A DNA stretch of 64,000 nucleotides from Mobula hypostoma. Its lineage: Eukaryota. Below are positions 648 through 64,000 of the stretch, in pieces (position 1 is the first letter of the stretch; every line of letters begins with the position of its first letter). The notes beneath the pieces were generated by a model, which had not been told where the DNA came from, searched no databases, and worked only from the letters and a program-made list of their open reading frames with translations. The position numbers were made by a program, and so were the translations under genes. Location of the stretch: assembly GCF_963921235.1 (NCBI RefSeq), contig NC_086097.1, positions 7,564,001 to 7,628,000 on the forward strand, given 5' to 3'.

Positions 648-1050
648 GAAAATGCTGGAATTATTTAGCAGTTCAGGCTATATCTATGGAGAAACAAAGA
701 AAGATAATGTTTCCAGTTAACATACAAACATGGTGAAGGAACTCAGCAGGTCAGGCTATATCTATGGAATGGAACAAAGAACTGATCATTAGAGTTGAGA
801 TTCTAGATTTCTAGTATCTGCAGAAGCTCTTGTATTTATAATATTTCAGGTTGATAGCTCTTTATCAGAAAAAAGAAATCTGGAGAATGCTCAATTTGAA
901 CTGTTAACTCTCTCCAGAAATCACAAACATGAGAAAATCTGCAGATGCTGGAAATTATGAAGGTTCTCGGCCCAGAACGTCGACTGTTTACTCTTTTCCA
1001 TAGATGCTGCCTGGCCTGCTGAGTTCCCCCAACGTTTTGTGTGTATCTCT
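648..1050. mobile_element. Cluster of nested, decayed Penelope pLTR pieces
   Basis: Repeated gaactcagcaggtcaggc / atctgcagatgctggaaa / ggcccagaacgtcgactg...gatgctgcctggcctgctgagttc. Confidence 0.55.
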
Positions 1051-6395: not shown

Positions 6396-6714
6396 GAAAC
6401 AATATCAGAATATAAAGCCTTTCTATCATAGATATTATAGTTTTCCCACTTTTAAGGGTCATCAGAAAAGCTCACAAAGTAGTTAGATACAAAGTTCAAA
6501 GTAAATTTATTATCAAAGTGCATATATGTCAACATATACAACCCTGAGATTCATTTTCTTGCAGGCATATTCATTAAATGCAAAGAAGCACTATAGAATC
6601 TATGAAAATTCACACACAAGATAAACAAAGAACAATGTGCAAAAGATAACAAACTGCTTGTGGCTGTGGGACTCTTTTTCTGGGGTTTTTGCTATTTGAT
6701 GTTTAATATCCGAA

Positions 6715-9770: not shown

Positions 9771-10079
9771 ATTTCCCACCAATTCCTCCCGATTCTTGCA
9801 GTTACTAGGAGAGTTTCACAATGATCAAGTAACCTATAAAATCTGCACAACCTTATGATGATGATTGCATTGTGCACAGCAAACTCCACTGGTAGCAATA
9901 TCATCAAAGACAGTATTATTGCAGCACAGCTGAAAGGGCCACTGCCTCGCCGGTCCGGAGACCAGGGTTCAACTCTGTGCTCTGATGCTGTCTTAGTTTG
10001 CGTGTTCTCTTTGTGTGTGTCTCAGTTTCTTCCTGGTCCTCCAGTACCCTCCCATATTCCAGGCTGGTAGGTTATATAA

Positions 10080-10475
10080 ACAAGAGATTATGCAGATACT
10101 GGAAATTGAGAGTAACTCACGCAAAATGCTGCAAGAAGTCAGCAGTTCAGGCAGCATCAATGAAAATAAATAAACAGTCAACATTTTGGGCCGAGACTCT
10201 TCTTCGGGACTGGAAAGGAAAGGAGAAGAAGCCAGAGTAAGAAGGAAGTGGAAGGGAAAGGAGTACAACCTGAAAGGTGACAGGGAAAGCCAGGAGGGTG
10301 GGGGAAGGGCTGGTGAAGCAAGAAGCTGGGAGGTGATAGGTGGGAAAGGTAAAGGGCAGAAGAAGCAGGAATCTGACAGGAGAGAAGACTGGACCAGGGA
10401 ACAAAGGGAAGGAGGAGTGGCACTGGGGGAGGTGAGGAGGAGAAGAGGTAAGAGTGGGGCCAGAGTTAGGAACTG
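10080..10475 (-). mobile_element. Penelope-like element 3' UTR/pLTR fragment
   Basis: Aligns with 28970-29330 (purine-rich block plus pLTR end); hammerhead core decayed. Confidence 0.7.
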
Positions 10476-16763: not shown

Positions 16764-19335
16764 GTCAGTGGTGGAGGCAGATACACTAGCGAAGTTTAAG
16801 AGACTACTAGACAGGTATATGGAGGAATCTAAGGTGGGGGCTTATATGGGAGGCAGGGTTTGAGGGTCGGCACAACATTGTGTGCCGAAAGGCCTGTACT
16901 GTGCTGTACTATTCTATGTTCTATGTTCTATGTATTGCCGCTTATCTGCGCCATCTTCTAACTCAACAGCTGAAACAAAAAATGGCAGATGCTGGAAGCC
17001 CGAAACAAAAGCACAGGGTGCTGGAAATGCTCAGCTTCTCTTGGGGGAGAAACAAAGTTGGTCCTTCAGATCAAGAACCCTTCCTCAAAACTGAAACAGC
17101 AAGCAGATGAATGTATTTTAAGTTGAAGAGATGAAGTGGAGGGACAGAGGGACAAGCATTGTCGAAATAACAATTGTTTTCATAGAGAAAGTTTGAAAAA
17201 TGATAGAAGCAAGTTGAAACGTAACAAATTGAAACAGAGGTCAAGGGTCAAGAATTAACTTTATTCACCACATATATTTACATATATTTTGAAATTGCTG
17301 TAGTGTGTCAGTCAGAATGCGACACGCAACAAAAATCTGAGTACCAGCTCTAAATCTTCTGCACAGTACTGTACATACACATATATATGTACATATATTC
17401 AGTATGGATATAAAATTAAATCAAATAAGTACTGCAAAAAGAAAGCAAAAGAAAAAAAAATTGTGAGGTACTGTTCATGTGTTCATTGTCCATTCAGAAA
17501 TCTGATGGTGGAGGGAAAGAAGCTGTTCCCAAAACATTTGAGTGTGTCTTCAGGCTCCTGTATCTCCTCCTTGATAGTAACAATGAGAAAGGGGCACTTT
17601 CTGGTTGATGGTGGTCCATAATGATAGATGTAACCTTTCTGAGGTATTGCCTTTTGAAGGTGTCCTTTTGTGTCTTGCTTTGAGAAGAACTCACTTTAGT
17701 CTTCAAGGATATCCATGAGCTTTTAGGCACCTGTTGCTTTAATTCTGTCCCATTCCCACTCAGTCCTCTCTGTCAGTGACCTTTTGTATTGCTCTAATAG
17801 TATCCAATGTTAGCTCAAGGAACAGCATCTCATCTTTCACAATATCAAGGATCAAGAATCATCTTTGTCTGCCCTATGCATTTACATGTATTGGGAATTT
17901 GCTGTGGTGTGTCGACGTGACATACACCAAAAAAAAAACAACATTCAACATTTATAAAGAATTTAAAAAAAAATAAAGTCGGAGGTTTGAAGTACAGATG
18001 CGGAAATAATGTGCATAAATACATAAACACTAGCATATATTTACAATGTAAACAACATTATTAAAAGTAGCTCAAAGTGCTTACAGTGCAGTGGGTGGGG
18101 TAGCTAGAATGGTTGGTCATATTAACTGCTTGCAGGAAAAAAAACATTTAAGTTGGTGTGGAATTCTTGTTTTAATAGCCTTACAGCACTTTCCAGAAGG
18201 TCTTACAGTATTTTCCAGAAGGGAGTTTTTGGAAAAGGCAGTTTGCAGGGTGGGTCATTCCACAATGATTTTCCCTGCTCTGAACACATCAAGTACTGCA
18301 GTGATGGTAGATGGCAGCCAGTGACTTTTTCTGCTGACTTGATAGTTTACTACAGTTTTCGTATATTGAGAGAGAATGCTGCACCAAACCAGACAGTAAT
18401 GGCTGATGTGAGAATGACAGTATGGAATTGCACCAGTATGTTCTGAAGCAGTGGACTTTTAACAATTGCCTCAAAAAGTACGTGCTCTCCAAGCCTTTTT
18501 GTTAATGAAGAAGATACGTTAGTTTTCAATCTTGGTCTGTCCTGTGTTTCTGTAATATCACACCGGAGGAATACTGTATCATTTCTTAATGCATGCATTA
18601 CTAAATGACAATAAAAGAGGACAGCGCATCCTCATAATCTAATCTAATCTAATATGGCTCTCCCACATGAGGTCCTGTGAAATAATGACTCCCAGGAACA
18701 TAAATATTAAAACATATTTCTTGAAACCCTCAGTATTTAAACAAGAGTTTAACAATTTCAGGTAAACACCCCTTCCACATTTTTGTTTGTTTATTAACAT
18801 ATGTAGCAGCATTGATGTTTCAATGGTCACTTTGGTCTGATTCTACTTTTTTATTTATTGATATCATTATCATTTTATCACTTTATCACTTTATCATTTT
18901 CTGTCAGAACCACCTCATATACAGAAGTTCCTATGCCTAATGTTAGTTTATGGACATACAATCAATCTATGTATTAAGCTATCTTATGCATTTATATTTA
19001 TTGTGTTTTTTTTAGTATTGTGTTCTTTATCTTACTGTTTTTTTGTGTAGCAACAGAGCTGGAGTAACAATTAATTCATTCTCCTTGACACTTGTGTACT
19101 GGAAATGACATTAAATATTAAACAATCTTGAATCTTGAATCTGGAATCATGTACAACTGAGGCATATACAGTACCTCCAGGTCAATTAATAATATTTGCT
19201 TTATCACCAGGTGCCAGAAAAGGGTCAGTAACATCATGAAGGATCCCACCCACCCTGCTCATGGACTGTTTGTCCCTCTCCCATCAGGGAGGAGATGACG
19301 TAGCATCCACGCCACGACCACCAGACTCAAAAATA

Positions 19336-19480
19336 CAAAACAATCTGCAGATTCCGGAAATCCAAGGCAACACGCACTACATGCTGGAGGAACGCAGCAG
19401 GCCAGGCAGCATCTATGGAAAAGAGTAGTCAATGTTTCAGGTCAAGACCCTCCGTCAGGACTCAAAAGATTCAAAAATTA
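19336..19480 (-). mobile_element. Single-arm Penelope pLTR insertion inside a Rex-type fragment
   Basis: Same pLTR sequence; flanked by the 13-bp direct repeat agactcaaaaata at 19323-19335 and 19481-19493. Confidence 0.65.
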
Positions 19481-28184: not shown

Positions 28185-28390
28185 ACACAAGAGATTTCAG
28201 ATGCTGGATTCCAGAGAAACAAATAATCTGCTGGAAAAACTTAATAGGTTAAGCAGTATCTGTGGGAGCACAGGAACTGTTGACACCTTGGGTCAAAATC
28301 CTATGTAAGACCAAAATGTTGACAATTCTTTTCCTCTCACAGATGCTGCTTGACCTGCTGAGTTCCTCCAGAAGATTGCTTGTTGCTCAT
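28185..28390. mobile_element. Penelope-derived fold-back insertion (divergent subfamily)
   Basis: aatctgctggaaaaact...gcagtatctgtggga mirrored by tctcacagatgctgcttgacctgctgagttcctccagaagatt. Confidence 0.6.
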
Positions 28391-28491
28391 GACTTTTTGG
28401 GCCACAATAACATCTACTTTTTTCACCCTAGGTATGACCAAATCTTGGTCATATGCCAACCAATTAATTATTAATTAGAGCGATTCATTTT

Positions 28492-28836: not shown

Positions 28837-28968
28837 AATGTTTGAAGGCAAAATCCTTACAGAAATAGTGTCTCAATCAACCTGCTTTCTAACCACCAAG
28901 ACTCTTTCTGACCTATTCTTGGATCCTTCCCCTTCCAAATTTTTACTCTATTTGCTCTGACAGGATTA

Positions 28969-29640
28969 ACACACACAACATGCTGGAGGAACTCAGGAAG
29001 TCAGGCAACATTTATGGAAATGAATAAACAGTTGATGTTTCGGGCTGAGACCTTTCATCAGGACTGTCTTATGGTCTTATGGACTGGAAAGGAAGGGGGA
29101 AAACACAGAAATGAAGGGCAGGGGAAGGGGAAGGAGCATAGCTGGAAGGTGATAGGTGAAGCCATGTGGTTGGGAAAGTGAAAGGACTGGAGAGGAATGC
29201 ATCTGATTGGAAAGGAGAGCAGACCATAGGAGAAAGGGAAGGAGGAGGGGCACCCAGGGGAGGTGATCGACAGGCGAGAAGAGTTGAGAGGCCAGAGTGG
29301 GGAATAGAAGAAGAGGGGAAGGGGAGAGAATCTTTTTTAACTGGAAGGAGAAATCGATATTCATGCCATCAGGTTGGAGGCTACCCAGATGGAATATAAG
29401 GTACTGCTGCTCCACCCTGAGGATGGCCTCTTTTGGCACAAAAGGAATGTGAGAAAAAGAATGAGAATTGGAATTAAAATGTTTGGTTACAAGGAATTTC
29501 ACCTTTTGGCAGATGGAGTGGAGGTGCTTGACAAAGCAGTCCCCCAACTTACGACGGGTCTCACCAATGGAGAGCAGCCCACATAGGGAGCATTGGGACA
29601 CATAGACAACCCAAGCAGATTCACAGGTAAAGCGTTGCCT
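28969..29640 (-). mobile_element. Penelope-like element 3' part: GIY-YIG endonuclease remnant plus pLTR with hammerhead motif
   Basis: ORF 29077..29661 VVYVSQCSLCGLLSIGETRRKLGDCFVKHL...KHFNS; pyrimidine-rich 3' UTR; minus strand agtc-CTGATGA...GAAA-C-ATC at ~29030-29065. Confidence 0.8.
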
Positions 29641-29789
29641 CCATCCCACCTTCCAGGTCATGCTCTATTCTCATCTCTACCATCAGGTAGGAGACAGAGG
29701 AAACCTGTGACTGGTCCCACAACACCAGGTTCAGGAACACCTATTACCCTACAACCCTCAGACTCCTGAACCAGTGTTCATACACCACA

Positions 29790-39956: not shown

Positions 39957-40359
39957 GTTGTACTGGTTGGTTCAAGAACCAAACAATTGAAGGAAAGTAA
40001 CTGTTCTTGAACCTGGTGGTGTCAGACTTCAGGTTTCTGTACCTCAAGCCCAATGATAGCTGTGAGAAGATCGCATGGCCCAGATGCTGGGCATTTCCAA
40101 GAAGCTTCTTGAGAATAGGCGAGAGTGAAAAGGTTGTGAGAGATTAGTGAGGAAGAGATCTGAAATTTCAGGTAATCTGATGCCCAGTAATTGCACAATT
40201 TATCTAAAGAACTGTTTGTAGATGAAAGAAAAGAAGAGAGCATAGGATAAGTTCCATCAAGTCATTTCCATCATTTGATCATGCCTGATTTATTATTCCC
40301 CTCAACACTAGTCTCTTTCTTTTATTTATTTATTGAGATACCGTGCAGAATAAACCATT

Positions 40360-40592
40360 GCAACACACATCAAAGTTGCTGGTGAACGCAGCAGGCCAAG
40401 CAGCATCTCTAGGAAGAGGTACAATTGACGTTTTGGTCTGAGACCCTTCGTCAGGACTAACGGACGAAGGGTCTCGGCCCGAAACGTCGACTGTACCTCT
40501 TCCTAGAGATGCTGCCTGGCCTGCTGCATTCACCAGCAACTTTGATGTGTGTTGCTTGAATTTCCAGCATCTGCAGAATTCCTTGTGTTTGC
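40360..40592. mobile_element. Penelope-derived fold-back insertion
   Basis: ~95-bp inverted arms; 13-bp TSD agaa(t/c)aaaccatt at 40347-40359 and 40593-40605; interrupts a tRNA-SINE tail. Confidence 0.85.
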
Positions 40593-41289
40593 AGAACAAA
40601 CCATTCCAGCCTTTCGAGCTGTACTGCCCAGCAATCACCAAATTTAACCCTAGCCTAATCATGGGACAATTTACAATGTCCAATTAACCTACCAACCGAT
40701 ACGGACTTGATGTCCTTACTAATCAAGACCCAATCTATCTCCTTTTTTGACATACCCAATGACTTGACCTCCACAGCCATCCATGGCAATGAATTCCATG
40801 AATTCATCACCATCTGGGCTGAAGAGAAACATTTGCCCATTCAATAAACTGAATAATCTCCCTGACAGGCAAATATGCACTAATGTGCATCCCCTAATGT
40901 ATCAATATACTACATTTTTTGGCACTCTTTCCTGGGCAAGTGAACATTATTCAGAAGTATGATCCACCTCTTTTTGTTTTTGAGAGTTAATATCTGTTTT
41001 AATTGCAGCTTCTCCACTAAATGCTTCAAGATAAATCAATGCAGTTCTATTCAGTTATTCCTTCTAATTTTCATTCTGCCAAATTGAAAAAGAGAAAGTC
41101 TTTGAGGTCCTTGCATTCGCAGCAGTCCTTTATCACTTATTAGAACACCAGATCTATCATCCACACATGCAAGACATTCTCTTTGTCATCCCTTGTTTTT
41201 GTGTTCATCTTTTATAATGAATCCTTCCTCATAAAATCATTATTATCATCTACACTACAAAATTCCTATGGGTTTTGACAAGTCGATGT

Positions 41290-42736: not shown

Positions 42737-43130
42737 CCTAACCTGCTGAGTTCCTCTAGCATTTTATGTATGTTGCTCTGGATTTCCAGAACCCCTTGTG
42801 TTTATAACATAAAATGCTAGAGGAACTCAGCAGGTTAGGCAGTACCCATGGAGGGGAATATTCAACGTTTCAGGCCAAGACTCTTCATCTGGACTGGAAA
42901 GGAAGGGGGAAGATGGAAGAATAAAAAAGTGGGGGAGGGAAGGAGGACTAGCTCGAAGGTCCTACTTCTCAGGTAAACTGCAAGTTATTTTATTCATTGT
43001 AAACCCAAATTTGGTTAAGACGTGATGGGCAGGTAAGGAGAAAAGGAGACAGAGAGCCAGGAATGGGGAATAGTGAAGGAGACGGGTGGCAGCAATTATC
43101 AGAAGCTTGAGAAAAATCAACATTCATGCC
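42737..43130 (-). mobile_element. Penelope-like 3' UTR fragment with a tail-to-tail inverted pLTR piece
   Basis: Similar to 28970-29370; perfect 33-bp inverted repeat 42737-42769 / 42807-42839. Confidence 0.7.
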
Positions 43131-46159: not shown

Positions 46160-46800
46160 TCATAGAGTCATAGAAAAGTACAGCAGACACAGGTCCTTTG
46201 GCCCATCTAGTCTATACTGAATCATTTAAACTACCTACTCCCGTCGACCTGCCTTGGGGACCATAGCTCTCTATACTCCTACCATCCACGAACCTATCCA
46301 AACCTCTTTTAGATATATTTCCTGATATCACTGCAGCTTACATTAGTTTAAAGCAAGTTCAGCTAAAAATGGAGCTTTTTAAAAAAACTCAATAGGTTAT
46401 GCCTTTTATTCCTTGGAACGTAGAACACTGGAGATTTGATGGAGATATACAATATTATGAGTGGTATAGATAGGGTAAATTCAAACAGACTTTTTCGACT
46501 GAAGTTGATGGGACTACAACTAGAGGTAATGGGTTAAGGCTGAAAGGTGAAAAGTTTAAGTGGAACATAAGGGGAAACCCTTTCACTCAGAGGGTCGTGA
46601 GAGTGAGGAACAGGTTGCCAGAAAAGCTGGTGCATGCAAGCTTGATTTTCAACATTTAAGAGAGGTTTGGATAGGTATAAATATGGTACGGGTATGGAGG
46701 GCAATGGTCCCCAATGCAGATCAATGGCAGTAGGCAGTTTAAATGATTCCGCAAGGCCTAGATGGGTGAAAGGCCCTGTTTTTGTGCTGTACATTTCCAT
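46160..46800. mobile_element. Two CR1 3' ends of one subfamily in opposite orientation (46160-46310 minus; 46390-46800 plus)
   Basis: catagaaaagtacagca...catttaaact mirrored by agtttaaatga...tgtgctgtac. Confidence 0.7.
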
Positions 46801-48711: not shown

Positions 48712-48900
48712 ACTCACGAGATTCTTCAAATGCTGGAAACATACAAAATGCTGGAGGAACTCAACAGGACAGGCAGCATCTATGGAAAGAAATAGACAGC
48801 CAATGCATCAGGACTCTGAAGAACGATCTCAATGAAGAGTCTCAGCCTGAAATGTTCCATAGATGCTGCCTGAATTTGAGTTGCTCCAGGCCTTTTGCAT
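48712..48900. mobile_element. Penelope-derived fold-back insertion (decayed)
   Basis: aaaatgctggaggaactc...gcagcatctatggaa mirrored by ttccatagatgctgcc...ctccagg. Confidence 0.6.
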
Positions 48901-53199: not shown

Positions 53200-53271
53200 A
53201 AAATCTTAAAAAAAAGTTCTTTCTTTAATCTTCAATCCACTCTTATTTTTTTGCAGACAGTATTATATTGT

Positions 53272-53372
53272 ACACTCACAAAATGCTGGAGGAACACAGC
53301 AGGTCAGGTAGCATCTGTTGAAATGAATAAACATTTGGTGTTTCAGGCCAAGGCCCTACATCAGGACTGGAC
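53272..53372 (-). mobile_element. Single-arm Penelope pLTR fragment
   Basis: cacaaaatgctggaggaacacagcaggtcagg...tttcaggccaaggccctacatcaggact. Confidence 0.6.
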
Positions 53373-56872: not shown

Positions 56873-56924
56873 TTCACCAAGATTGCACAGACAATTTTCT
56901 GTGAATCAACTGGCTATAAGTATA

Positions 56925-57172
56925 AACACAGGATATTTCGCAGATGCTGGAAATCCAAAGTAACACACACAAAAAGCTCGAGAAACCCAGCAGGTCGGTC
57001 AGCATCTATAGAAATGAATAAACCATCAATGTTTTGGCCAAGACCCTTCATTAGGACCTGACGACATTGCAGAGAGTCCTGATGAAGGGTCCCGGGCTGA
57101 AACGTCAACTGTTTCCTCCCCCTCCAAAATGCTGCCTGACCAGCTTAGTTCCTTCAGCATTTTGTGTATGTG
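56925..57172. mobile_element. Penelope-derived fold-back insertion (older)
   Basis: Diverged inverted arms; plus arm agtc-CTGATGA-agggtcccgggct-GAAA-C-GTC. Confidence 0.7.
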
Positions 57173-58230: not shown

Positions 58231-61065
58231 CAATAGACCAGAGTTCTAGTGCTCTTTACAGCACAGTCCTGAAGGTAATATAACCACAGCCAGAGATTAT
58301 TGGTTAGAAAGTTAAAGTCCTACTGTGAAGAATGAATGGGAGTGAGATGAGAGGGATATTGTACTCAATTATCTGTTCGTACAGACTGTCGTCAGTGTTA
58401 TTGATCATCACTACAACCCTGATCACAATCTTTTCCCTGCCCTTAATCACTGTTGGATATCCAGCTGCAGAGGTTAATAGATTCTGGTGAAGGAATTAAG
58501 GGTTACAGGGAGAAGGTACTATAATGGGGATGATGTCCTTAATGATGGACTTCTGCACTGAGAAATAGGCTTCTCCCTTCTCCTTGAGGGACGTGCAACT
58601 TGTCAGATGGGATGCCGAGAGCCAGCAACTTTTCTTAAAAGACACCAATTCAATTCTGCGGGGGATACAGAAAACTCTTCCTCTTGAGTTTTTCAACCCT
58701 ATGAATAGAACTCACCTCCAAGCTAAAATCTAGGACATTATATTTACTTTTTATGGACACATACATGCTTATGCACTTCAGCACTTATTTGCACGATTGT
58801 TGTTTTAATATTGAAATACATTTTACATTTTTTTGCAACACCATCATTATTAAGTTCATACTGAAGCATAGCATGAAGCTGAACAAATTGTCAAATCAGG
58901 AGTAAAGATAACATTAGCTTAATAACACGATAAGATGCCGTTTAGTTCCCAAAATAATCTAGCTACTTGTACCTGAGATCACAAAGGCTACAGCATGAAA
59001 TTGCAGACTGTCCTACATACAAAGGAATCTCAGAAGAGAAAGAAAAAAAATTTAAAAAAAACACCGGGATATTCTACTTGTGATATTACTTTTAATTTCA
59101 AAATGGCTTTCATGATCAATTTATGATTTTACAGAAGATGATTATGCTATTGCTGCATGCATTCGACATTGCATAAGTACCCTCGAAAGCTGCAGTTTTT
59201 CTGTTGGGTATACAGGTTACAGAAATACTCAAGTCAAACATTAGAATAAAAGTTCAAAGTAAATTTTATTATCAAAGTCCATATATGTCACCATATACAA
59301 TCCCGAGATTCAGTTTCTTGTGGGCATACTCAGCAAATCTATTGAATAAAGTTTCAAAGTACATTTAATAACAGGGAGTATGTATCCAGTACACAGCCTT
59401 GTCCTCTTCACAGACACCCACGAAATAAAGAAACCCTGCAGAATGACAGAAAAACTTGAAGGCCCAAAAGCCTCACTCCCTTTACACAAGCAGCAGCAAA
59501 AAGCATCGAACCCTCCACTCCACCCCACACACGCCATCTGAATCACCATCCAAGCAGCAGCAGAAGCCTTAGAGAGTCAATGATCCCAAATCCATCAAAT
59601 TACAGTCCACAACCCAGCACTTCAGAATCTCAGACAGACTCTTTGTCCTGTGAGGGAGAGAGAAGTAAAGAGGTCACTCTTGCAACAATAAGAGCGGAGA
59701 CCAGCAACTTGCTGTTCTGATGTTAAGATCTTCCAAGTCGCTTTTCCAAGTCCCCCACCACCCCCCTGCACTGTCCTAAGGACCAGCAGGCTCTCTTTCT
59801 CAATTAAAAGTGTATTAACTATAACAGAATCAATAAAAGATCAATCAGAGTGCAGAAGACCTTAAACTGTGCAACTCCAATGATAAATACATAGCTATAA
59901 ATAATGCGGACATGAGATAACAAGATAGAGAAGTTCAAGTGAGATCATTGGCTGTGGGAAGATCTCAGTGGATGGGCAAGTGAGTTACCCCTTTTGTTCA
60001 AGAGCATGGAAGTTGTGGGGTAGTAATTCTACAATCACTGGTAACTATTCGTGGATTAGTAAGCCATTCTTCTGAATCTTATCAAGTACAAGATACAGCA
60101 GCAGCCTATTGAGTTTGCTCTACCATTCAGTCACGCCTTATATTTCCCTCAACCTCATTGCCCTCCCTTTTCCATGTAACCCTTACCCACCTCACCAATT
60201 AAAAACCTTTCAAGCTCTGCCTTAAATACACCCAATGACTTGGCCACCACAGCCTTCCCTGGATCCACCACCCTCTGGCTAATGAAATTCCTCCTTAATT
60301 CAGATTTAAATGAACATTCCTCATTGTGAGGCTCTCCTACTAATGGAAACATCTTCTCAATGTCTACTGTATCCAGGCTTTTTAATATCCTGTAGGTTTC
60401 AGAGATGCCCCACTTATCCTTCTGAATTTCATTGAAAACAGGCCCAAAGCTATCATGTCTGATATGTTAATCATAGATCTATAGAAAAGTACAGCACAGA
60501 AACAGGCCTTTCAGCCCATCTAGTTACTGCTAAACCATTTAAACTGCCTGTTCCCATTGACTTGCACTCAGACCATAGCCCTTCACACCCCTACCATCCA
60601 TGTGCCTATCCAAACTTCTCTAAAAAATTGAAATCAAAGTCACATCCTCCACTTACACAGGCAGCTCATTCCACACTTTCACAAATCTCTGAGTGAAGAA
60701 GTTTTCCCTCATGTTCTCCTTAAACATTTCACATTTTACCCTTAACTTATGACCTCTAGTTGTGGTCTCTCCCAATCTCAGTGGAAAAAGCCTGCTTGAA
60801 TTGACCCTTATCTGTCCAACTCATAACTGTGTATACCTCTACCCAATCTCCTCTCATTTTTCTATGTTCCAAGGAATAAAGTCATAACCTTTTCAACCTT
60901 TCCTTATAACTCGGGTCCTCCAGACCCAGCAACGGCTTTGCAAATTTTCTCTGTACTCCGTCAACCATGTTTACATCTCTCCTGTAGGTAGGTGACCTAA
61001 GCTGCACACATTACTCCAGATAAGGCCTCACCAATGTCTTCTACGTCTTCAACATAACATCCCAT

Positions 61066-61185
61066 CCCTTACTCACTCTTCCTTCAGTTAGTCCTGAAGA
61101 AGGGTCTCGGTCTGAAACGTCGACTGCACCTCTTCCTATAGATGCTGCTTGGACTGCTGCGTTCACCAGCAACTTTGGTGTATGT
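61066..61185 (+). mobile_element. Single-arm Penelope pLTR insertion inside a CR1
   Basis: Splits CR1 sequence aacataacatccca|tcctgtactc; closely matches the arms at 40360 and 63315. Confidence 0.75.
61090..61125 (+). ncRNA. Minimal type I hammerhead ribozyme motif (Penelope-associated)
   Basis: Stem I AGTC/GACT; core CTGAAGA; stem II AGG-gtctcgg-TCT; GAAA; palindromic ACGT in place of stem III; GTC cleavage triplet. Confidence 0.65.
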
Positions 61186-63414
61186 TTCCTGTACTCGATA
61201 CTTTGATTTATGAAGGCCAATGTTCCATAAGCTTTTTCTTAATGACCCTATCTACCCGTGATGCCACTTTCAAGGAATTATGGACCTGTATTCCCAGATC
61301 TCTCCATTCAACTGCTCTCCTCAGTACCTTACCGTTCACTTTTCAATTCTAAGGATCATTCTTATGAAGCTTCTCTGGAACCTCTCATGAGTCAGCACAT
61401 CTTTTCAGATTCAGGTTGACTATCATTGAGATAGGTCATGAAATTAGTTTTTTCAGCAACAGTACAGTGCAATGCACAAAAATGAATAAATATAACCTGC
61501 CGGTCTCAGTATCAAGTTCCTCATATACCGTACGTGATGTAAAATGGATGGAATGGGCAGATGTACTATGGACCAGAGGGCCTCAGAGGTGCTATACTAA
61601 TGACAGAGAGAGGATTTATTAGGGTGCATTTCATTGGCTTTGTATCTGTACTCGGCACAATGACAATAAAATTGAATCTAATCTCATCTAATTTTTGTGC
61701 GTGTCATATAAGAGCACAATAACTTGAGATTCTTAAGGTAGCAATTAGGGTAGTGAAGTGCAGGTCGATGAGTGTAGGCAGTTTAAATGGATTGACACAG
61801 ACTAGATGGGCCAAAAGGCCTGTTTCTGTGCTGTACTTTTCTGTGACTCTGTACGACTCTGCCAAAGGAGGTATAAGGCACTTCTTCACTCCGCTAATTT
61901 GCAGGTCACCCTCGAGCAAGATGTAGCACCTGCTTAGCGCTCCACCCCCCCCCCACTGATCAGGGTCACATGAAGTCATGGGATCAAGTGGTGGATGGTC
62001 TTATGAGTAGCTGATGAACATCATAAATTCTGGTCTTGCGACCACTGACGCCAGGCAGACAATCTCTGAAGAGTATTGATAATGGTTGGGTCACCTGTCT
62101 TGTAAAAACACTGCCCAGATGAAAGCAATGGAAAACCACTTCTAGAGAAAAATTTTCCTAGAATAATCATGACCATGATTGCCCATGTCATATGACACAG
62201 CACAAAATGATGATGACGGGTAATATATTCTCAGGGGTGTATGAGGTATCCAGAGAGGTGTGGCACGTCTGGTGAAGGGGCTTGTTGTGTCCATTCCAGG
62301 GAATCTTCACTCATCTTTGGACTTCACCAGACACTTATCTCTCACCTATGGTTCCAAGTAGCTGTCTGCATGTGATCGCAGTACACTGGGTGCATCGCTT
62401 CCACAGGCGGGTTAAATCAGGTGAGATAGTCGGCAGGGGCCTGATAACCTGGTTAGATAGGGTCATGGAGCCTAGCATATGAAGCCTGATGAGCTAGGTA
62501 AATGAGATGTACAGTGTGGACCAATGGCCACAAAGTGGGTTCTGCAACCCCTCGTGGAGAATGAAAGGTGTGAAGGTGCAACTAAGGAAGGCCCAACTGT
62601 AATGACCTCTTGAACCAGTGGACCCAGACTTCTGAGGTTGAGAGAGTGGAACTGCCCATCGCAACAGTGTTTTTCATTTAAAAACTCTCGCACAGGTTTC
62701 CTGTCAGGCAACCTTTCAATATACGCTTTACAAAGAAAAAGAGGAAATAAAGTGTCCTGAAAGACGATAAAAGATTCATTTGTCCTCAACATGTGTGTCC
62801 GAGGAAGATTTGCTTCAGCCGCAGGGCTACATTAGTTTTTCTCATTGCTCTATTTGCTGCCCTCTCCCTCTGCTTTGTAATTGTTTATTAGCAATCTCAC
62901 AGACTGTGCCCAGAGTACATTGCAACAGCCCATTTAACTGTCTCATCTTTCCAAAGGCAGCTAATTTCTGCTACTGATGCTGGAAAGTAGTGTAATGGAG
63001 AGTCTGTATTACTTGCAGAAATGTAACACTCTGTAATCTGAGCATGCAGGCTGTTTGATAGATAACCGTAGAGATGGTAACCTGTAGAACATGCTTAAAA
63101 GTGGAAAACTCAATCTTTCTATGTTTACTAATGTCAGCTCAGTTCACAGAGTTGGCGAAGGCAATGATAGTTTTTACAGGAACTCAATTTTGTTGAAAGC
63201 CCAATTTGAGATTGAGACCAAATGACAATAGGGCTAAAAGACATAGGAACAAAATTAGGCCATTTGTTCTGTTCTGCCACTCCACCATGGCTAACTTATC
63301 AACCCTCTAAACCCGCAAACATCAGGAATTCTGCAGATGCTGGAAATTCAAGCAACACACATAAAAGTTGCTGGTGAACGCAGCAGGCAAGGCAGCATCT
63401 CTAGGAAGAGGCGC

Positions 63415-63449
63415 AGTCGACGTTTCAGGCTGAGACCCTTCGTCAGGAC
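63415..63449 (-). ncRNA. Minimal type I hammerhead ribozyme motif, intact core
   Basis: Minus strand gtc-CTGACGA-AGGgtctcagCCT-GAAA-C-GTC-gac. Confidence 0.65.
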
Positions 63450-63458
63450 CCTGACGTG

Positions 63459-63494
63459 AGTCCTGACGGAGGGTCTCGGCCTGAAACGTCGACT
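63459..63494 (+). ncRNA. Minimal hammerhead motif with a core substitution
   Basis: agtc-CTGACGG(A9>G)-AGGgtctcggCCT-GAAA-C-GTC-gact. Confidence 0.5.
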
Positions 63495-64000
63495 GCACCT
63501 CTTCCTAGAGATGCTGCCTTGCCTGCTGCGTTCACCAGCAACTTTTATGTGTGTAACCCTCTAAACCCATCCTCTTTCCATCTTCCTGTAACCTTTGATG
63601 CCCTGACTAATGAAGAACTAATCATCCTCCTCTTTAAATATATCCAATGGCTTGGCCTTCATTGCCATCTGTTGCAATGAATTTCCTAGATTTACCACCC
63701 TCTGGCTAAAGAAATTTCTCTTCACCTCTGTTCTAGATGGACGTTCCTCTATTCTGAGGCTGTGCTGTCTGGTTCTAGACTCTCCCACTACAGGAAATAT
63801 CCTCTCCACATCCACTCTGTCTAGGCCTCTGGACCCCACCATGCCACTGGATCTGGGAGGGGATGTCAAGAGGGTGGGTCTGGACCTGTGCAACCCCCTA
63901 CTCACCTAAAATCCATTCACACACACGCTGTTCCTTTCTGAGGAGTGGGGTATCCTACCTATCAAACCCCACTAACTGACTGAAAGGAACCAACATCATC

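Follow-up and report, generated by a model that had tools for sequence, protein, structure and literature searches.

Insertions of Penelope-like elements (PLEs) typically comprise inverted, 5'-truncated copies and a tail of 30-40 bp that is present on one side only, as described in the accessible part of PMC8557442. In a rotifer PLE, according to the available portion of PMC3846280, the inverted pseudo-long terminal repeat (pLTR) is 37 bp shorter than the tailed one, the one-sided tail is 31 bp long, and palindromes at the junctions are interpreted as products of self-priming. A PLE protein has been shown to cleave and extend both strands, initiating reverse transcription at two neighboring internal sites between which the tail is located (PMC11167929). 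Here we analyze a stretch of 64,000 nucleotides from the genome of Mobula hypostoma (contig NC_086097.1, positions 7,564,001 to 7,628,000; hereafter the window, to which all coordinates refer unless indicated otherwise) that contains, at 63315-63554, a 240-bp near-palindrome consisting of a head-to-head pair of PLE 3'-terminal fragments. This palindrome and its numerous relatives are most probably dead-on-arrival insertions of the 3' end of an abundant PLE that result from priming on both target strands and have no function of their own. Each unit is a single insertion in which the arms are primed outward-in from the ends of a 13-14-bp staggered break and the junction between them is formed de novo.

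The palindrome at 63315-63554 and its parent element

The palindromes noticed in the original prediction are real, as indicated by an inverted-repeat search, direct reading and BLAST, which recover the 63315 unit and the named relatives. In the inverted-repeat search, the arms of the 63315 unit (63355-63449 and 63460-63554) are 95 nt each, 97% complementary and separated by 10 nt. The left arm extends outward for another 40 nt (63315-63354), which constitute the tail, and the right arm has no tail. Thus, the description of one arm as reaching the 3' end of the element and of the other as stopping about 40 nt short holds for this unit, and the tail is one-sided in every pair examined. Direct reading reveals a 14-bp target duplication, AACCCTCTAAACCC, on both sides of the unit (Table 1). 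Element positions are counted below from the G of GTCC, which is +1. The homology of the arms to the 3' end of the GIY-YIG fragment at 28968-29641, also proposed originally, is supported by BLAST and by translation.

The source of the arms, as judged by its reading frame and structural signs, is apparently a PLE of the endonuclease type, and the arms correspond to its last 95 or roughly 135 nt. In the 3.48-Gb assembly that was searched throughout, a 33-nt motif composed of 15 nt upstream of the arm and the first 18 nt of the arm occurs 82,154 times with at most 2 mismatches, and another 33-nt motif, located within the arm, is found 152,777 times when up to 3 mismatches are allowed. Most of the first 30 places of the former motif extend far upstream. 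In the long copies, the arm is preceded by a pyrimidine-rich untranslated stretch and, further upstream, by an open frame that ends about 330 nt from the arm; upstream of the arms, these copies contain an open stretch of 380 aa that includes the YIDD motif of reverse transcriptases and the sequence GVIYCV...LYIGET. The nearest ESM-Atlas clusters consist of eukaryotic proteins with HTH_animal, GIY-YIG and RVT_1 domains, of which GIY-YIG and RVT_1 are found in 13-23% of the members. An older relative, the copy at 28968-29641, shares this layout; its GIY-YIG-like stretch was identified by eye from its translation compared with the long copies. There is a continuous gradation from these arms to longer ones and, further, to copies that extend into the GIY-YIG reading frame. 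In one long copy (L058, positions 29-1210), a LINE-like reverse transcriptase part precedes the Penelope frame in the same frame; this copy may be chimeric or nested.

Abundance of the two-armed units and position of the fold-back

The two-armed design is very common: of 3,711 first-look candidates, 40 genome matches were scored, and every one of them covers the unit end to end, spanning the whole 240 bp at 89-100% identity. When an exact 16-mer at +51 to +66 was used as the anchor, at least 11,061 head-to-head pairs were detected with an inner-anchor spacing of 0-120 nt, namely, 300 pairs with a spacing of 0-30 nt, 1,819 with 31-60 nt, 4,582 with 61-90 nt and 4,360 with 91-120 nt, where a spacing of 100 nt corresponds to both arms starting at GTCC. 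Other anchors yield 1,254 pairs joined within 30 nt upstream of GTCC and 497 pairs in the next interval upstream. This distribution of junction positions is based on counts of exact 16-mer patterns and depends on anchor conservation; the spacing counts are rough because conservation varies among the anchors and the one at +51 is present in older subfamilies as well. The junction is favored within and just upstream of the hammerhead-like region of the element but is not fixed there. Accordingly, the proposal that the arms fold back at or near the CTGANGA core is adequate as a description of the mode but not as a fixed point, given the spread of the spacing counts.

The orientation of neighboring arms was assessed for 100 arms that are located within the initial 3.45 Mb of one contig and contain an exact copy of the +1 anchor. 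Within 1 kb, head-to-head neighbors were found 8 times (18-767 nt apart), tail-to-tail neighbors were not found, and there was 1 tandem neighbor; additional head-to-head pairs in the same set lie 1.7-6.5 kb apart. Perfectly symmetric junctions were recognized by eye in 12 of 150 listed places, centered on the self-complementary dinucleotides TA, AT, CG and GC in the contexts CTAG, GATC, ACGT, TGCA, GTAC and AGCT. Such symmetric centers on self-complementary di- and tetranucleotides are what mutual pairing of two identical cDNA ends would be expected to produce.

The palindromes are rebuilt at each insertion

In an alignment of 29 copies selected by similarity, the arms and the ends are conserved, the flanks differ, and the center varies both in length (0-22 nt) and in sequence. 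The unselected set consists of the first 50 places in genome order (L061-L110) among the 1,254 matches to a pattern that includes the inner 16 nt of both arms with at most 30 nt between them. These 50 copies contain 37 distinct central junctions; in 26 copies, the junction includes a filler of 1-19 nt, in 16, the arms overlap by 1-3 nt, and in 8, the junction is blunt. The filler often consists of short re-copies of neighboring arm sequence. Many arms include an additional 1-23 nt of true element sequence from further upstream, and such variable extensions are therefore not derivable from a shorter master palindrome. The junction types that recur 5, 4 and 3 times among the 50 sit on at least 4-5 subfamily haplotypes and, by reading, occur in both orientations relative to the tail, and therefore appear to be recurrent products rather than lineages. 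Taken together, the distinct junctions and the identical junctions on different haplotypes indicate that the palindrome is not inherited but rebuilt at each insertion.

These observations bear directly on one of the two alternatives put forward in the original prediction, namely, that the palindromes comprise a self-propagating, non-autonomous ribozyme-hairpin element, in which case a master palindrome would be transcribed and copied whole by the Penelope machinery. Such an element would be compatible with the thousands of copies of near-constant size and design, with the recurrence of certain junction types, and with the complex 27-nt junction that is shared by L106 and L107 within differing flank repeats. 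However, the diversity of the junctions, the variable extension of the arms into genuine upstream element sequence, the continuum of arm lengths, from starts inside the arms to hundreds of bases, and the distribution of the recurrent junctions over several haplotypes and both orientations all contradict propagation of a fixed master, and L106 and L107, which lie 10 kb apart and of which the latter has arms differing at three linked sites, fit local gene conversion. The prediction itself had taken junctions unique to each copy as a sign that no self-propagating family exists, and the junctions are essentially of this kind, so that this alternative appears highly improbable. The other alternative, that the palindromes are extreme products of 5' truncation and inversion, agrees with the gradation of arm lengths into longer copies and with the one-sided tail present in every pair.

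The L106 and L107 copies (contig C1, at about 111.30 and 111.31 Mb), which have different flank duplications, are the sole pair that shares a complex junction. At the three linked sites, one of the L107 arms has the haplotype of another subfamily. This sharing of the junction may reflect local gene conversion or local re-copying.

A miniature inverted-repeat, or fold-back, DNA transposon that merely resembles Penelope sequence would also have a palindromic body with flank duplications. However, the ends of the palindromes are unequal by about 40 nt, the center varies between copies, and the arms align collinearly with the 3'-terminal part of an element that apparently encodes a reverse transcriptase and GIY-YIG, running outward to the 3' end of that element. 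Moreover, a duplication of 13-14 bp with a broad range of lengths is unlike those of cut-and-paste families. This explanation can be regarded as virtually negligible.

Regularities of the insertion unit

In the same 50 copies, an exact flank repeat of at least 8 nt is present in 46 cases, with a median of 13.5 nt, compared to 9 of 500 cases, with a maximum of 8 nt, when flanks were mismatched between loci. The lengths of the repeats peak at 13-14 nt (30 of 46), the duplicated target is 68% A+T, and on both sides, T is preferred two bases past the inferred nick (26 of 46 in each case). The nick-site preference is nearly symmetric, with a spacing of 13-14 bp. Separately, on the tail-less side, the base next to the duplication is preferentially G (22 of 46).

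The most prominent regularity is that exactly one arm is tailed in all 50 copies. For 49 of these, this follows from a cut at position 125, and in the remaining one, L102, the tailed arm ends at +124; there are no two-tailed pairs. The tailed arms end between +124 and +137, with the mode at 133, which corresponds to a tail of about 37-40 nt. The tail-less arms mostly end at +95 to +97 (20 of 50), with the range from +27 to +106. The rule holds also for all 7 longer or asymmetric pairs from other loci, in one of which the tail-less arm stops at -8. The same sample includes 9 tailed and 11 tail-less single copies, the latter ending at +95 to +105, and the tail-less arms of the pairs mostly end where the tail-less single copies do. 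Independent drawing of the ends would make about half of the pairs alike; in contrast, the ends are unlike in 57 of 57 pairs. The idea that every tail-less single copy conceals an inverted piece of the tail, such as the one at 924-956, was abandoned given that in L051, a clean flank repeat abuts the copy.

The one-tail rule is difficult to reconcile with the formation of the palindromes by two independent, adjacent insertions or by a later rearrangement of a single copy at the DNA level, for example, via a replication template switch. PLE nucleases have been reported to cut in or near their own sequence (PMC11167929), and a tail-to-tail abutment is present in the window at 42740-42943, both of which would be in line with adjacent insertions. 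However, a single flank duplication encloses both arms in 46 of the 50 copies, the two arms share a haplotype, and head-to-head neighbors within 1 kb number 8 against none for tail-to-tail ones, so that this origin can hardly be considered credible.

The arms of a pair are concordant at the subfamily-diagnostic sites in 47 of 49, 47 of 50, 44 of 48 and 45 of 47 pairs, respectively, compared to about 19-36 expected under random pairing; among the 29 similarity-selected copies, the concordance ranges from 22 of 29 to 29 of 29. An impression from the alignment that the two arms often come from different subfamily alleles was not borne out by these counts. Arm-to-arm gene conversion as the source of the concordance is not supported because the arms within a copy are no closer to each other than they are to arms of the same haplotype elsewhere. 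The arm lengths show no polarity: the arm that extends further 5' is the tailed one in 18 copies and the tail-less one in 19, with no difference in the remaining 13. Among the 25 filler-free junctions, the tailed arm is longer in 10, the tail-less arm in 11, and the arms are equal in 4.

The absence of polarity is particularly relevant for the possibility that a single cDNA, started at the tailed end, folds back and copies itself, with the new strand being captured by the other target end. Such a snap-back would account for the junction palindromes and for the presence of the same variant in both arms; self-priming has been proposed for PLE inverted repeats in the accessible text of PMC3846280, and capture at the second target end could account for the scatter among the ends of the tail-less arms (+27 to +106). 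However, this scheme predicts that the tailed arm always extends at least as far 5' as the other arm, whereas the tail-less arm is the longer one in 19 of 50 copies and in 11 of the 25 filler-free junctions. Furthermore, most of the tail-less arms end at the internal site of the tail-less single copies, and perfect palindromes with zero spacer, as seen by eye, leave no room for a hairpin loop. Simple snap-back is disfavored because of the lack of polarity and the coincidence of the tail-less ends with those of single copies, and appears unlikely, if less so than the other alternatives considered here.

A model of two-strand priming and the evidence that weighs against it

Under the preferred explanation, priming on both target strands, the element nuclease would nick both strands of the target, and each of the resulting 3'-OH ends would prime reverse transcription, with either a single RNA or RNAs that share a source as the template. 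One primer would start at the internal site and the other on the 3' tail left single-stranded by the first, which would account for the invariable difference between the two ends. Both cDNAs would stop early, mostly within or just upstream of the hammerhead-like region, and their 3' ends would then be joined by template jumping or end joining, to give a blunt junction, an overlap of 1-3 nt or a short templated filler. Folding predicts that a hairpin may form at the internal end within the 3' module of the element.

Several observations weigh against this explanation or against parts of it. With respect to the parent element, the GIY-YIG match in Pfam for the long-copy frame (E=0.0024, 18.6 bits) is below the curated cut-off of 22.6, and RVT_1 was not matched by Pfam on a 296-aa piece of this frame, so that family support is weak. 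With respect to the start sites, 12 of the 50 tail-less arms end before +90, that is, the end is less exact than a fixed start site predicts, and the strict one-of-each rule is not predicted because in vitro start-site use showed no strand difference. The evidence for a common RNA is similarly affected: arm divergence of 1.0% versus about 4.1% between subfamilies implies that the subfamilies differ in age, so that the concordance of the arms is inflated by succession in time; outside the diagnostic sites, the arms within a copy differ by 2.21% compared to 1.96% between copies of the same haplotype, which leaves the use of one RNA unproven; and in 3 of the 50 copies (L076, L098 and L107), the arms differ at two or three diagnostic sites. 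Use of microhomology appears weak, given that overlap is present in 16 of 24 filler-free junctions versus about 44% expected by a rough estimate. Finally, in four public runs, none of them recorded as RNA, the contigs break at the repeats and do not span the 63315 insert, so that neither an empty site nor a transcript was seen, and the intermediate is a hypothetical one.

A more general rule can be tentatively formulated according to which, in every two-armed Penelope insertion, the first start is internal, the second start occurs only on the tail, and the joining of the two identical cDNAs takes place preferentially at the self-complementary helices of the hammerhead region. In this combined form, the rule is possible but rather doubtful. 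If it is true, one tail per unit without exception would be expected, and the ribozyme region would be the favored fold-back zone; furthermore, 10^4 or more loci with perfect hairpins of roughly 100 bp could feed small-RNA silencing of the family.

The hammerhead-like motif

A descriptor of the hammerhead core with fixed spacing yields 5 matches in the window, compared to 0.11 expected from shuffled sequences, and 4 of the 5 are located in arms (Table 1). The fifth match, at 6438-6465, was dismissed as fortuitous given that it lies outside any arm and has no flanking helix I. In the arms, the motif consists, in this order, of a helix I strand (…AGUC), CUGACGA, an extra A, GGGU-CUCG-GCCU, with 4 predicted pairs, GAAA, CG, UC and GACUG, which can pair with the helix I strand (5 pairs). 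All three core boxes are retained in 8 of 25 unselected arms, the other arms being decayed; the A after the first box is present in all 25, and the CG at 15.2-16.2 in the undecayed arms. The conserved G10.1-C11.1 pair is missing in the young subfamily, which has G-U (…GGCCT GAAA), and the older subfamilies have C at this position (…GGCCC GAAA), which is a CpG site. No Rfam hammerhead was detected in the window at the gathering score, in 63250-63650 at E up to 10, where there are 5 other matches, or in positions 1470-1600 of the long copy L053. The Rfam models of the microRNA (miRNA) precursors MIR1144 and mir-1237 score the palindrome at 63378-63533 with E values from 1e-6 to 5e-3, below their gathering scores; these and the other Rfam matches on the palindrome were taken as spurious because such models fit any long hairpin.

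In the 63315 copy, the core boxes are intact only in the minus-strand arm, whereas the plus-strand arm has CTGACGG. Among the other fold-backs, the one at 40360 has no CTGA in its right arm (40463), and in the one at 28185, the right arm (28314) begins inside the motif. Thus, the presence of a hammerhead motif on each strand, as suggested originally, is valid as the design of the family but fails for individual copies. A transcript of the palindrome is predicted to form a hairpin of roughly 100 bp, with energies of -205.9 and -204.0 kcal/mol for the two strands, compared to -7.6 for hammerhead-type pairing of a single arm. The suggestion that a sense ribozyme would be masked by the antisense arm in a transcript follows from these predicted folding energies. 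The motif is probably the own pLTR motif of the element that is carried in each arm and, in a transcript, would be locked in the hairpin. As far as the accessible part of PMC4209133 indicates, such minimal PLE hammerheads have low activity in vitro, and the hammerhead of the green anole element PAc is protein-assisted and dispensable for insertion in vitro (PMC11167929). In related older subfamilies (for example, L050, positions 2845-2939, and L073, positions 16-209), the first boxes include CTGCTGA and CTGCCAA, with the conserved A6 replaced; these non-canonical boxes suggest that some lineages may have spread without an intact hammerhead core.

Other copies in the window

BLAST comparison of the 240-bp unit with the window identifies arms at 924, 10078, 19344, 28968, 40360, 42807, 48714, 53271, 56924, 61087 and 63316. 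These arms belong to fold-backs of different ages and to single copies (Table 1). The clean fold-back at 40360-40590 has arms of 93 nt that are 92% complementary, with the tail on the right, and is flanked on both sides by the repeat GCAGAAYAAACCATT (40345-40359 and 40591-40605).

Table 1. Features of the fold-back at 63315-63554 and of related copies in the window
Feature	Position	Strand	Remark
Target-site duplication, left copy (AACCCTCTAAACCC)	63301-63314	+	identical string at 63555-63568
Tail-bearing arm, element +1 to about +136, antisense on the + strand	63315-63449	-	40-nt tail at 63315-63354
Minimal hammerhead-like core, boxes intact (CTGACGA, 13 nt, GAAA, CG, TC)	63419-63446	-	descriptor match
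Central 10-nt junction filler (CCTGACGTGA)	63450-63459		peculiar to the 63315 copy
Tail-less arm, element +1 to +95, internal end (…ATGTGTGT)	63460-63554	+	
Hammerhead-like motif, first box altered (CTGACGG: G for the conserved A9)	63463-63490	+	no descriptor match
Target-site duplication, right copy	63555-63568	+	
Second clean fold-back, same young subfamily	40360-40590		left arm 40360-40452, tail-less; right arm 40463-40590, tailed
Older fold-back	56924-57171		tailed antisense arm 56924-57057, 12-nt junction, tail-less arm 57070-57171; both arms by BLAST
Old, decayed fold-back	48712-48900		tailed antisense arm 48719-48812 by BLAST; right arm, with an internal deletion, by eye
Old fold-back	28185-28396		left tailed arm by eye; right arm 28314-28396 by BLAST, begins inside the motif (+25)
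Fold-back with the tailed arm reduced to the tail alone	924-1044		tail 924-956, antisense; tail-less arm 959-1044 (+9 to +95)
5'-truncated single copy, older subfamily	28968-29641	-	GIY-YIG-like coding remnant, 3' untranslated region, hammerhead-like motif, tail-less internal end
Single tail-less copy	61064-61191	+	5'-truncated 26 nt upstream of the motif
Single tailed copy	19325-19462	-	5'-truncated exactly at GTCC; about 20 nt of filler before the flank repeat
Further single arms	53271-53368, 42807-42943, 10078-10340		BLAST
Hammerhead descriptor matches in the other arms	29034-29061, 57079-57106, 61094-61121		

The arrangement at 42740-42943 is of the tail-to-tail type: a sense 66-nt 3' fragment with its tail (42740-42806) abuts the tail-less end of an antisense arm (42807-42943), such that the tail forms the loop between two inverted copies of +62 to +95. 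This abutment could result from insertion at the end of an older copy or from self-priming at the RNA 3' end. The flanks of the 63315 fold-back (63220-63267 and 63580-63800) are other high-copy repeats, as judged by the summed contig depth of four runs, and in the vicinity of the fold-back, only about 63100-63219 behaves as single-copy sequence. The window also contains an unrelated inverted repeat at 46184-46314 and 46654-46784, with arms of 131 nt that are 78% complementary and 339 nt apart, and another inverted repeat at 727-778 and 987-1038. The segment 12001-16000 has a strongly positive GC skew of +0.29 and a G+C content of 0.454, the maximum for the window.

Implications and comparison with known systems

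As a class of elements, the fold-backs are of little importance: they are expected retroelement debris and should be masked rather than annotated as a new family, a miRNA-like hairpin or a ribozyme gene. They also present a practical hazard, in that they can break assemblies and yield false matches to miRNA precursors. The value of the fold-backs lies in the natural experiment that they provide, with tens of thousands of independent two-armed events in one genome that constrain the mechanism of Penelope integration. The constraints include the strict one-tail rule, the presence of the same variant in both arms, the lack of arm-length polarity, and the stagger of 13-14 bp, with a base preference that is symmetric between the two nick sites. 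In the literature searched, neither the strict one-tail rule nor a census of junctions across a genome was found to be described; older papers on Penelope structure may hold them.

In LINE-1 twin priming, the second target strand primes cDNA, which yields an inverted 5' part inside one flank duplication, and the two segments are neighboring, non-overlapping parts of one RNA. In contrast, the two arms of a fold-back correspond to one and the same region (+1 to +95), each starting close to the RNA 3' end, so that the product is a true palindrome. The fold-backs are not twin-priming inversions of the LINE type because the arms overlap fully.

The non-LTR retrozymes, as characterized in the accessible parts of 10.64898/2026.07.22.740005 and PMC7229834, resemble the fold-backs in that they are derived from the pLTR, carry its hammerhead and are non-autonomous. 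However, retrozymes consist of units arranged head to tail, give rise to circular RNA and are believed to propagate, whereas the fold-backs are inverted, made anew, and would have the ribozyme masked. The fold-backs are not retrozymes because the units are inverted rather than tandem, with 1 tandem neighbor within 1 kb among 100 arms; the available portion of 10.64898/2026.07.22.740005 does not mention inverted or palindromic forms of retrozymes.

The motif in the arms shares with the minimal hammerheads of metazoan PLEs, to the extent that these are covered by the accessible text of Cervera and de la Pena 2014 (PMC4209133), the CUGANGA and GAAA boxes, the extra unpaired base after A9, the short helix I (5 pairs), the lack of a helix III hairpin, the palindromic CG at 15.2-16.2, and C at 17. 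In contrast to those hammerheads, the closing pair of helix II in the young subfamily is G-U rather than G-C, helix II has 4 pairs versus 6-8, and there is no match to the Rfam models searched here. The motif in the fold-backs is a candidate ribozyme.

The closest mechanistic parallel is the green anole element PAc studied in vitro (Frangieh et al. 2024, PMC11167929). As in the reading proposed here, both strands are cleaved and extended, and two adjacent start sites bound the tail; the target is AT-rich as well, and the PAc hammerhead is located about 100 nt upstream of the start sites and is not needed for insertion. In contrast, the start sites of PAc show no strand difference in vitro, whereas the genomic pairs described here always contain one of each, and a joined two-armed product is not described in the main text of PMC11167929.

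Finally, the fold-backs are most similar to the canonical insertion units of endonuclease PLEs, as far as these are described in the available parts of PMC3846280 and PMC8557442. Both consist of head-to-head inverted 3' fragments with one tailed arm and a partner that is about 37-40 nt shorter, and in both, the entire unit is enclosed by a flank duplication, the junctions contain palindromes or microhomology, and the repeat includes a hammerhead. The fold-backs differ from the canonical units in that both arms are cut to about 95-135 nt, so that only two 3' modules are left, and in the very high copy number, with at least 11,061 short pairs. Furthermore, the one-tail rule is strict in the fold-backs (57 of 57), whereas in the accessible text of the two papers the tail is called 'optional' or 'often' one-sided. 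Altogether, the fold-back is a PLE insertion unit of the known type of which only the two 3' modules are left, an ordinary by-product of these elements.

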